A stretch of 24,658 nucleotides of DNA from a virus (taxonomy: Duplodnaviria; Caudoviricetes). The translations under genes and the position numbers were made by a program. Positions within the stretch are counted from its first letter, which is position 1; the number at the start of each line of letters is the position of its first letter. Where the stretch lies: IMG/VR virus record IMGVR_UViG_3300020045_008087, positions 1 to 24,658 of that record. One strand, 5' to 3'. This document shows, piece after piece, positions 3,193 through 24,658 of this stretch. The notes under the pieces are model-generated. The model searched no databases. It was given only the letters and a program-made list of their open reading frames with translations, and was not told the DNA's origin.

Positions 3193-3233
3193 TAGAGCTT
3201 ATTGACGAGTAAAGTTCAGGATAAGCAAGGAGT

Positions 3234-3257
3234 GACCCTTCTTGCGAAGGGTTTTTT
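3234..3257 (+). terminator. Intrinsic terminator after capsid and decoration genes
   Basis: GACCCTTC-TTGC-GAAGGGTT, T-run 3252-3257. Confidence 0.8.
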
Positions 3258-3266
3258 AATACAAAT

Positions 3267-3431
3267 ATGGCTAAAGCAAGAACAGTTAAAACAGAAAATA
3301 AAATAGTAGATGGCTTTTATAAAGGCTACGATTTGAGCTGGCTCAAAGAGAATCCAGAGCATCCAGACTTCTATCTGGTAGCTGAAGCCGAAGGATTAGA
3401 AGAGGTTGAGCTAGAGGAAGGACAAGAATAA
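3267..3431 (+). CDS. Small hypothetical protein, 54 aa (not in ORF track)
   Basis: MAKARTVKTENKIVDGFYKGYDLSWLKENPEHPDFYLVAEAEGLEEVELEEGQE; fills the gap and stops 1 nt before the next ATG. Confidence 0.7.
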   Translation: MAKARTVKTENKIVDGFYKGYDLSWLKENPEHPDFYLVAEAEGLEEVELEEGQE

Positions 3432-3432
3432 T

Positions 3433-10638: not shown

Positions 10639-10654
10639 TAGTATAGAAGTCTTT

Positions 10655-10687
10655 AAGGCTCAGATCAACTTGATCTGGGCTTTTTTT
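10655..10687 (+). terminator. Intrinsic terminator/attenuator in the tail-operon leader
   Basis: GCTCAGATCA-ACT-TGATCTGGGC plus T7 (10681-10687); left arm overlaps AGAAGTCTTTAAGGCTCA (10645-10662). Confidence 0.8.
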
Positions 10688-23148: not shown

Positions 23149-23591
23149 GCCTAGAGAGAGGAGAGAATGTTGTATTTGATGTTCCCCCGCCAGACCCACC
23201 AAGGGTAGTGAGATCTACCGATGAACATTCGGTTGAATATCATGCGTATTTAACTACAAGATTATTCAGAGCTGTGGGAGTGGCTGAGATGTGTGACCAA
23301 ATGTTCTATAGATATTTGGGAGGAAAGCCTGGGCTAGTCGAGGTGGTAGTCAATGATCCATCCACCAAAGTTAAAAGTAAAATTAACCTAATGTTGACCA
23401 GAGATTATGTTTATAGCTTGAAGAAACTAGCTTTTAACACATTCCTTGCTCTTTGGGATATTAAACCAGAAGGGGTAAACATCGCTCAACAGGTGATGGA
23501 TAACATGAAAGATACAGATCGTAGCGAGGTACAATTAGTAGATAAAATTGATGATCCACCAAAAGATGTACCATCTACAGGAATGCACTAA
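23145..23591 (+). CDS. Hypothetical protein
   Basis: 148 aa; ATGA overlap with the upstream gene. Confidence 0.65.
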   Translation: MSLERGENVVFDVPPPDPPRVVRSTDEHSVEYHAYLTTRLFRAVGVAEMCDQMFYRYLGGKPGLVEVVVNDPSTKVKSKINLMLTRDYVYSLKKLAFNTFLALWDIKPEGVNIAQQVMDNMKDTDRSEVQLVDKIDDPPKDVPSTGMH

Positions 23592-23633
23592 TCTAGTATA
23601 ATATACCCCTAGAAAGCGGGGTGAAGAAATTAC

Positions 23634-23762
23634 ATGGATGAAACACAAGAGGAAGTTGTTGTGGAAGAGGAGGTTTTAGAGGAAACCCCAGTTGAGGCAG
23701 TTGAAGCTGAAACAGAGGAGACTGAGGAAGAAAAACCCCTTGAGGAAGTACCACAAGAGTAG
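23634..23762 (+). CDS. Very acidic 42-aa protein (not in ORF track)
   Basis: MDETQEEVVVEEEVLEETPVEAVEAETEETEEEKPLEEVPQE; TATAAT 23597-23602 and GGGGTGA RBS upstream. Confidence 0.7.
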   Translation: MDETQEEVVVEEEVLEETPVEAVEAETEETEEEKPLEEVPQE

Positions 23763-23774
23763 TACAATTTAGTT

Positions 23775-23905
23775 AGATTGAGCTTACTGTAATGTTCGTG
23801 TGTTGCGTATAACCACATGAGCAAAACCAGTGACCTGTATAGGGCTTAATCTCTAACTACTGGTTTGGGTGCTTGTAACACTGTACCCAAGCTGGTAGTT
23901 TTTTT
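23775..23905 (+). ncRNA. Putative structured small RNA of unknown family
   Basis: TACAAT 23763-23768; stem 23775-23785/23842-23852; hairpin 23793-23802/23814-23823; pseudoknot 23824-23832/23858-23866; terminator at the 3' end. G-U pairs favour the + strand. Confidence 0.6.
23855..23905 (+). terminator. Intrinsic terminator
   Basis: 18-bp stem 23855-23872/23883-23900 with G-U pairs, T-run 23899-23905. Confidence 0.8.
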
Positions 23906-23906
23906 G

Positions 23907-23935
23907 TTGACAAATATTGACCTTGGGGGTATAAT
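23907..23935 (+). promoter_or_regulatory. Perfect consensus sigma70 promoter
   Basis: TTGACA 23907-23912, 17-nt spacer, TATAAT 23930-23935. Confidence 0.9.
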
Positions 23936-23940
23936 TTAAT

Positions 23941-24036
23941 AGCCAGTAACAGTTTTCGCCACACGAAGTCCCTTTGATTTCGGGTATGGTTTCAAGGCGA
24001 AAACTGTACCGTACTCGGAATTAAGGGGATTTTTTT
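23941..24036 (+). promoter_or_regulatory. Structured 5' leader with competing antiterminator and terminator helices
   Basis: 12-bp perfect helix 23949-23960/23996-24007 versus roughly 26-bp helix 23965-23990/24008-24033 with T7 24030-24036. Confidence 0.75.
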
Positions 24037-24297
24037 GTGAACAAAATAGGACAAATACTTCAGATACCAACCACACCACAGACTAAAATAACCTTGATGT
24101 GGCAGGATAGGGCATATCAGATATTCAAAGCCCTTAACCTACCTAGAACAGATCTACCCAACCTCTTTAGATTCTTCAAATTTAACTATGATAAACACCC
24201 TGGACTCATTGAAGCAGCGTATTCTTTTGTCAGTGACTATGAGGGTGATACTCCCAAACTTAAACTATTCTACTGGAAGTTTAATCAGTTGAAATAA
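24037..24297 (+). CDS. Small helical hypothetical protein
   Basis: 86 aa, GTG start 7 nt after AAGGGGA; TAATG coupling to the next gene. Confidence 0.65.
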   Translation: MNKIGQILQIPTTPQTKITLMWQDRAYQIFKALNLPRTDLPNLFRFFKFNYDKHPGLIEAAYSFVSDYEGDTPKLKLFYWKFNQLK

Positions 24298-24587
24298 TGA
24301 ACTATAGACAAACACAAGCTTTAATGACTGGACGAGCAAGTAAATTGAGGAAGAGCCCAACTGTTGCTGAGTCAACCCTGTTCAAGTTGTTAAAAGATGC
24401 AAAGATAAACTTTAAGTTCCAATCCCCACGTTGGCATGACGGACAACTACGTATTTTTGATTTTTGGCTACCACAGCCTCATCGTATAAATATTGAAGTA
24501 GATGGGGAATATCACAATGCTGAGAGAGACGCTTTTAAAGATAAACTTATGAAACGGGCAAGACCCCCTAGGAAAGCACCGTTTTAG
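24297..24587 (+). CDS. DUF559/Vsr-like PD-(D/E)xK endonuclease, possibly C-terminally truncated
   Basis: RASKLRKSPTVAE, FKFQ, IFDFW, IEVDGEYH, RD..KD motifs; the usual terminal (V/I)LRF strand is absent. Confidence 0.75.
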   Translation: MNYRQTQALMTGRASKLRKSPTVAESTLFKLLKDAKINFKFQSPRWHDGQLRIFDFWLPQPHRINIEVDGEYHNAERDAFKDKLMKRARPPRKAPF

Positions 24588-24658
24588 ATCCTTAATTGGA
24601 CTTAGAGTTTCATGTCTTTGCAAATGGTGTTGTCTCTCACCAGACACATATTCTAATC

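Follow-up and report, generated by a model that had tools for sequence, protein, structure and literature searches.

A predicted structured RNA with its own intrinsic terminator ahead of the early operon of a phage from a lineage present in Patescibacteria genomes, and its possible action as an attenuator

The stretch of DNA analysed here, hereafter the window, is a linear virus record of 24,658 nt that is 60% complete. It carries genes for a P22-like portal, a major head protein, tail and lysis, all on the + strand. Relatives of the capsid protein are found on contigs of genomes titled Woesebacteria (the best match, with 50% identity), Berkelbacteria, Saccharibacteria, Gracilibacteria and Nealsonbacteria, and six of the ten capsid-relative loci belong to Patescibacteria. 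The window represents a phage from a lineage present in Patescibacteria genomes and, given that the capsid relatives sit on Patescibacteria contigs, the host is likely an ultra-small CPR bacterium. The closest near-complete relative, G001, is 95% complete and has a capsid protein that is 87% identical. Elsewhere, a capsid-gene match (G022:C144) has two TGA stops, which would fit a recoded phage in the bin concerned; G002 holds about ten short repeats in an array together with an inverted copy, with an origin-like appearance (L136, 13490-13700); and in the window, at 3229-3432, an unlisted short ORF-like stretch with a terminator-like hairpin occupies a 240-nt gap beyond the gene that follows the capsid gene.

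The element studied here, RNA1 (131 nt), lies within a 274-nt gap, 3' of the lysis and accessory genes and of a 42-aa acidic ORF, and is followed by a perfect early promoter (Table 1). Two promoter-structure-terminator units stand here in tandem; RNA1 is the first, and the second is the leader RNA2, driven by the perfect promoter. The acidic ORF has no Pfam or PHROG match, carries its own promoter-like site and ribosome-binding purines, and possibly encodes a protein of the DNA-mimic type. Short direct repeats shared by the two units are seen in the terminator loop (23877-87 and 24000-10), in the T-run tail (23899-914 and 24030-45) and in the -10 context (23762-71 and 23929-38); they hint that a promoter-leader-terminator unit was duplicated long ago.

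Table 1. Features of the RNA1-RNA2 region, in window coordinates
Feature	Position	Strand	Details
Promoter-like site of acidic ORF, 10/12	23574..23602	+	consensus scan; -10 at 23597
42-aa Glu-rich ORF	23634..23762	+	stop codon 12 nt 5' of RNA1
Promoter-like site of RNA1, 9/12	23740..23768	+	TACAAT 23763-68; predicted +1 about 23775
RNA1	23775..23905		131 nt
RNA1 5' domain, state A, three-way junction	23775..23852	+	predicted fold, -27.1 kcal/mol
State A helices	P1 23775-83/23844-52; P2 23784-89/23828-33; P3 23793-805/23810-23; P4 23834-36/23841-43	+	
State B nested antiterminator hairpin, 16 bp	23824..23866	+	23824-32/23858-66 extended by 23837-44/23851-57
Intrinsic terminator, 18-bp stem, 10-nt loop, T7	23855..23905	+	stem 23855-72/23883-900, -26.1 kcal/mol; T7 23899-905
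Perfect sigma-70-type early-operon promoter, TTGACA-17-TATAAT, 12/12	23907..23935	+	consensus scan
RNA2 leader	about 23942..24036	+	z -6.29; T7
RNA2 first stem, 12 bp	23949-60/23996-24007	+	encloses 5' arm of terminator-like helix
RNA2 terminator-like helix, 24 bp	23967-90/24008-31	+	holds Shine-Dalgarno-like purines of 86-aa ORF
86-aa ORF behind RNA2	24037..24297	+	
DUF559-type endonuclease ORF	24297..24587	+	

A preliminary description presented RNA1 as a pseudoknotted small RNA of roughly 130 nt with its own terminator. That a structured element of this size exists is borne out by folding with ViennaRNA, where RNA1 beats its shuffles (z -5.55, with none of 200 as good). The same holds for the 5' domain alone (z -4.32, 0 of 200), which by these shuffle tests is a real structure. 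All the helices that had been claimed, the T-run and the next promoter were found where they had been placed, with P1 read as 11 bp including three G-U pairs (23775-85/23842-52) and the hairpin of the P3 region as 10 bp including two (23793-802/23814-23). Missing from that description were P2, which has a pair probability of 0.98, and the hairpin P4. These two create the three-way junction of the 78-nt, three-helix 5' domain, and P2 sequesters most of the strand that had been proposed to form the pseudoknot. The fold is the same within a longer transcript coming from upstream. The terminator is also present, and its stem, energy and T-run are those of an intrinsic terminator; it is missing from the terminator-scan list because its 10-nt loop exceeds the 8-nt limit of the scan. 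Judging from its position, this terminator almost certainly shields the early promoter from upstream transcription.

The promoter assigned to RNA1 is less secure. TACAAT is present and places the predicted start at the beginning of P1, but the site scores 9/12, a level that occurs at chance frequency (15 sites found versus 11.7 +/- 3.7 expected). Its -10 context and flanks resemble the late promoters of G001. The consensus promoter reported 2 nt past the T-run is there, with a complete match. It is possible that RNA1 is a stand-alone RNA, and it could equally be read as the 3' UTR of the acidic ORF, whose promoter is an alternative source of the transcript. RNA1 would then serve the acidic-ORF or late transcript as a structured 3' UTR with a constitutive terminator, its 5' domain would stabilise the mRNA, and the competing helix described below would be due to chance. 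The nearby stop codon of the ORF, its better promoter, the unchanged fold in a longer transcript and the presence in G001 of a hairpin and a terminator at the same place all fit this reading, which we nonetheless consider rather unlikely, given that it leaves unexplained a 78-nt junction domain (z -4.3) placed before an already very strong terminator. Transcript length touches the fold at one further point: an 8-bp complement, 23770-77 with 23852-59, extends P1 only in transcripts that start upstream of 23775, and it occupies the base of the terminator 5' arm. Long and short transcripts may thus differ in termination.

According to the preliminary description, a strand inside P1 pairs, as a pseudoknot, with the left arm of the terminator, and the two folds compete. 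The competition is upheld, while the knot gives way to a simpler topology. The segment 23824-32 is complementary to 23858-66 (eight Watson-Crick pairs and one G-U), and this pairing takes part of the terminator 5' arm (23855-72). In the computed folds it lies at the foot of an antiterminator hairpin that is nested throughout (state B), its upstream strand being held by P2 in the ground fold (state A). When the terminator 5' arm has just emerged, state B with P3, obtained by forcing the 23824-32/23858-66 pairing, reaches -24.5 kcal/mol versus -27.1 for state A, a gap of 2.6 kcal/mol. Masking the first 15 nt (23775-89) at this stage makes state B the best computed fold, and at full length the lead of the terminator drops from 15.6 kcal/mol with a free 5' end to 3.0 when the 5' end is blocked. 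As modelled, the folds of RNA1 constitute a protector, antiterminator and terminator logic that has no need of a knot.

A true pseudoknot is disfavoured by hand accounting, ViennaRNA leaving pseudoknots unscored: opening P2 and P4 costs +6.9 kcal/mol and a loop penalty must be added, set against -9.6 kcal/mol for the duplex. The same balance bears on the reading of RNA1 as a riboswitch-like element, where a ligand or ion would stabilise the knot formed by P1 and 23824-32/23858-66 and so block the terminator. The crossing helix on which this depends is present, and the 9-nt and 5-nt linkers appear compatible with a knot. The need to break P2 and P4 in addition to the pseudoknot penalty, the lack of any Rfam family match and of an ORF directly after RNA1 make this reading very unlikely.

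How well the competing helix stands out depends on the null that is used, and all of the tests were post hoc, chosen with the helix already known. The 8-bp Watson-Crick run recurs in 16 of 2000 shuffles (p 0.008), whereas p rises to 0.056 with G-U pairs allowed, to 0.225 for the best 25-nt window and to 0.33 by duplex energy. A second pairing, 23800-07/23874-81 (8 bp), reaches into the terminator loop (p 0.095), and both pairings occur jointly in 8 of 3000 shuffles. In structure-preserving shuffles, a state gap this small is found in 99 of 2000 (p 0.05; median gap 10.7), and the energy of state B alone has a p of 0.24. The support for bistability of RNA1 is therefore borderline, ranging from p 0.008 to 0.33, with 0.05 in the fairest null. 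Eight promoter-structure-terminator units of relatives were hand-picked for a two-state test, which gave a result for seven; the gap was 4.0 kcal/mol for RNA1 versus 5.9-18.6 in six of these seven, the other, a weakly folded unit, having a gap of 1.0 kcal/mol. The several nulls without significance agree with a 3' UTR in which the helix is fortuitous, and the small state gap is left unexplained by it.

The expectation that RNA1 falls outside known families was confirmed by the Rfam scan, in which no C4/CI, riboswitch aptamer or ribozyme model matched it. There are no matches at gathering score in the window, and of the seven weak matches (E<=10) in 23550-24100 none overlaps 23775-905. ARAGORN predicted no tRNA or tmRNA genes.

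Ribozymes of the HDV-like kind typically have a P1 of about 7 bp. A divergent member that trims the upstream mRNA was considered for RNA1 on account of its strand order, which runs P1, insert, crossing helix, short hairpin, P1', a 5-nt linker led by C, and crossing helix'. This order mirrors that of minimal HDV-like ribozymes, where P4 is missing and the catalytic C occupies the first position of J4/2, and the linker 23853-57 begins with C as in that first position (PMC10879173, in the text available). The P1 of RNA1 measures 9-11 bp instead, no Rfam ribozyme matches, and P1.1 cannot form, the loop of the short hairpin having no C and the linker after P1 no G; loss of P1.1 is a severe deficiency in the HDV-like fold, according to the available text of PMC3383444. 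We regard a ribozyme as highly improbable. Attenuation controlled by ribosomes on a mini ORF is scarcely credible either. There are two such ORFs, 23792-812 (six codons, with tandem Cys) and 23817-849 (ten codons), and the antiterminator is also favoured when 23790-812 is blocked. Both lack a Shine-Dalgarno-like site and have their start codon hidden within structure, and ORFs as short as these often arise by chance, 13 start codons being present between 23763 and 23939.

Relatives of RNA1 were sought at several levels. In the INPHARED phages, blastn gave short matches in 184 records, the best of 35 nt at E 0.3, and no homolog of RNA1. A gapped pattern of P3 retrieved 119 loci from viral contigs (50 of 64 parts), none with the context of RNA1 as judged by eye and blastn, and a gapped pattern of the crossing helix retrieved 79 loci, all simple inverted repeats, with a best model score of 18 bits. 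A covariance model built from the single sequence, which is insensitive and was applied to many records that are fragments, recovered only RNA1 itself from 78 related-phage sources (1.26 Mb), and nothing from 151 Woesebacteria-class genomes or 33 further loci. Blast searches produced only short chance matches in 5 + 40 related records, and two short matches without a homolog in 139 genomes of the order; the best short match in a bacterial genome lies inside coding-like sequence. The 86-aa and 148-aa neighbour proteins found no viral loci as single queries, and an alignment search with neighbour proteins found one, in another context. A 19-nt stretch was not found in the searched part of the supplements of a catalogue of 10,000 viral RNAs (PMC10690425), and the literature search yielded no description of the element. 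With one sequence and no homologs, RNA1 cannot yet define a family.

RNA2 can be placed in a broader setting. A strict scan detected its layout, carried by unrelated sequence, in seven of 45 records (window included), six of them scoring -30 or better, while three shuffles gave seven, zero and zero matches with a best score of -28.9; the leader of this type in G001 was caught by looser scans only, for a total of 8/45. Members of this uncatalogued class, found ahead of phage replication operons, open near +1 with an 8-15 bp stem inside which lies the 5' arm of a long terminator helix; the 3' strand of the stem lies at or near the terminator 3' arm, and a T-run and usually a start codon follow. 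Early leaders of this type are located at L133 11958-12048, L259 10501, L240 19374, L263 6813, L245 8558 and L233 1338. The class is better supported than RNA1 itself. RNA1 resembles it in the long closing stem from the predicted +1, the terminator at the end and the long-range pairings aimed at that terminator. Unlike in RNA2, the terminator 5' arm of RNA1 lies outside the first stem and its complement inside, and P1 closes before the terminator, with just the weaker 8-bp pairing 23800-07/23874-81 crossing into the loop, which leaves RNA1 outside the class to which RNA2 belongs. Stand-alone units made of a promoter, a long stem-loop and a terminator also occur in relatives, with unrelated sequences (L244 near 1443-1545, L283 near 4304 on the minus strand, L254 near 5273, L260 near 1413 and L245 upstream of 8558); the long hairpin of L245 has a C-rich, anti-Shine-Dalgarno-like loop.

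The genes downstream of RNA2-type leaders include those for a Toprim/zinc-finger primase-like protein and an HNH nuclease, and two others that look by eye like replication initiators and have no Pfam match. The 86-aa protein behind RNA2 has distant matches in 82 of 401 Microgenomatia-class genomes, where it corresponds both to a gene of about 95 aa standing alone and, in element-like loci, to the C-terminal part of proteins of about 245 aa. The conserved host gene of about 95 aa often lies beside a gene that looks, by eye, like a peptidyl-tRNA hydrolase (loci L388-L412). In the Atlas look-up, the 86-aa protein fell in unnamed clusters only, with C-terminal families of replication initiators at 0.75 as weak leads.

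A reading that we hold unlikely takes RNA1 for a free-standing antisense RNA that acts in trans, akin to C4, CI and IsrK. Its 78-nt domain would bind the RNA2 leader as it is made and upset the first stem of that leader, thereby setting termination or translation of the early genes for immunity or copy control. RNA1 is bounded by a promoter-like site and a terminator, its 5' end is closed and it adjoins the early leader. In the available text of PMC5320573, C4 RNA is about 77 nt with three stem-loops, to which the size and three-helix shape of the RNA1 domain are similar. Moreover, 23795-802 is complementary to 23960-67 (8 bp, or 11 bp with a bulge, at -14.2 kcal/mol), and 23824-29 matches 23987-92 (6 bp, as read from the sequence). 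This pairing is not significant (p 0.065 for the 8-mer, 0.14 by duplex energy and 0.18 for the best window), the 8-mer is buried in P3 with a pair probability of 1.0, and co-folding gave no stable complex. In seven of seven relatives, the top five windows include no convincing non-coding complement to the 5' part of the leader. The 5' strand of RNA1 also matches the terminator arm of the capsid leader over 12 bp with a bulge, a pairing that is not significant, ranking 25 among 1400 sites, and neither G001 nor G002 has an equivalent of it.

Comparison with the known systems, limited to the available text of PMC5320573 and PMC4825925, points both ways. The three-helix domain of about 78 nt with a closed 5' end and the position beside the leader of early genes recall P1/P7 C4 RNA and P4 CI RNA (PMC5320573, PMC4825925). 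In C4 RNA, the RNase P site is a 5' GG(W) at the base of P1, whereas P1 of RNA1 starts with AGA and has no 5' GG processing motif; unlike C4/CI, RNA1 has no loop-exposed complements to two target sites and has its own terminator (PMC5320573). Like IsrK of Gifsy-1, RNA1 would be a short terminated RNA with a possible read-through isoform, and this isoform would enter a helix that hides a ribosome-binding site; it differs from IsrK in having a second promoter between the two parts, in the lack of significance of the trans pairing and in showing no sequence or Rfam similarity (PMC4825925).

Other terminators of this phage lineage also look conditional. Just before the capsid and adaptor genes lie late-gene leaders in which a promoter is followed by AGA and then by a 4-bp hairpin, the 3' strand of which forms the base of a terminator. 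They are found in the window at 1347-1393 and 10645-10687, and in relatives at L134 (6615 and 19240), L135 (2537 and 13091), L138, L139, L156, L290 and L291. These promoter-proximal terminators carry a covarying hairpin, in which 43 of 44 cells pair and both sides vary in three of the four pairs (matched by 0 of 500 shuffles), a covariation count biased by the choice of alignment rows by motif pattern. This suggests that the late leaders are an undescribed late antitermination signal.

The reading that we tentatively prefer, plausible but short of probable, is that RNA1 is a small RNA whose transcription stops by default, which insulates the early operon, and that it is likely switchable to read-through. 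Taking the helices, coordinates, terminator and position as they stand in the sequence, and the energies and the flip upon masking as computed, we infer transcription, read-through and a trigger as follows. By default, the 131-nt RNA would fold into the closed three-way junction and stop at the strong intrinsic terminator: strand 1 (23775-89) would hold strand 2 (23824-33) through P1 and P2, leaving strand 3 (23855-72) free for strand 4 (23883-900), and a stable short RNA would be released. If strand 1 were masked during transcription, strands 2 and 3 would form the nested 16-bp antiterminator and the polymerase would continue into the early leader RNA2 and its genes. RNA1 would thus act as a conditional stop, or attenuator, at the border between the late and accessory genes and the early promoter.

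The least supported step is the trigger, for which a late antitermination factor of the phage would be our choice, given that the -10 context and the first three bases of RNA1 match the late leaders of the phage. The predicted folds follow the classic 1:2 / 2:3 / 3:4 scheme of exclusive pairings, and the conditional-looking terminators of the RNA2-type and late leaders add to the case for a switch. Against it, G001 has only a small hairpin and a terminator at the position of RNA1, and the hairpin motif of the late leaders is itself absent from RNA1. Since the finished terminator stays the best fold even with strand 1 blocked, read-through must be kinetic, and it looks redundant because a perfect promoter sits 2 nt past the T-run. 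In the pR'-6S-tR' region of Lambda, a short terminated RNA is released by Q. RNA1 would similarly be made constitutively as a short RNA that stops at a strong terminator and that a phage factor may release, and the late leaders of this phage also resemble that arrangement; unlike there, the switch of RNA1 seems to lie in the pairing of the RNA itself. A Q-like gene was not detected in the record, which is 60% complete.

The attenuator of pT181 offers a parallel at the level of pairing. As described in the available text of PMC5703833, the repC leader has a pre-emptor and the stem-loop IV attenuator. In RNA1, too, an upstream strand can pair with the terminator 5' arm and pre-empt the terminator, a factor acting in trans would shift the fold by masking, and the element precedes replication or early functions on a mobile element. 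RNA1 differs in that its default is predicted to be OFF rather than ON, with P1/P2 as an extra protector, and in that its terminator is followed by a second promoter and leader instead of directly by an ORF (PMC5703833). An antisense promoter as in the pT181/pIP501 type was sought by consensus scan only, which found no minus-strand promoter-like site in 23626-24658. By analogy, and as far as these partly available sources go, pT181 pre-emptor logic together with IsrK provides the closest working analogies to RNA1.

A wider, improbable model joins both units into an RNA-only switch for lysis/lysogeny or replication in phages of CPR bacteria. Terminated RNA1 would bind nascent RNA2, whose first stem otherwise topologically traps the terminator arm, and the antiterminator of RNA1 would yield the read-through isoform. 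If true, unrelated sequence would here make up a circuit like those of IsrK and CI, in hosts whose regulatory machinery is minimal. Gene control in CPR phages is, in our judgement, almost unstudied, and our literature search found no paper on the topic. In the window, a single phage combines three ways of controlling termination at the RNA level, namely RNA1, the interleaved RNA2 leader and the covarying late leaders. Were RNA1 only a 3' UTR, it would be ordinary; if it is a switch, it would couple the early operon to late transcription through a compact two-state element that is easy to test.
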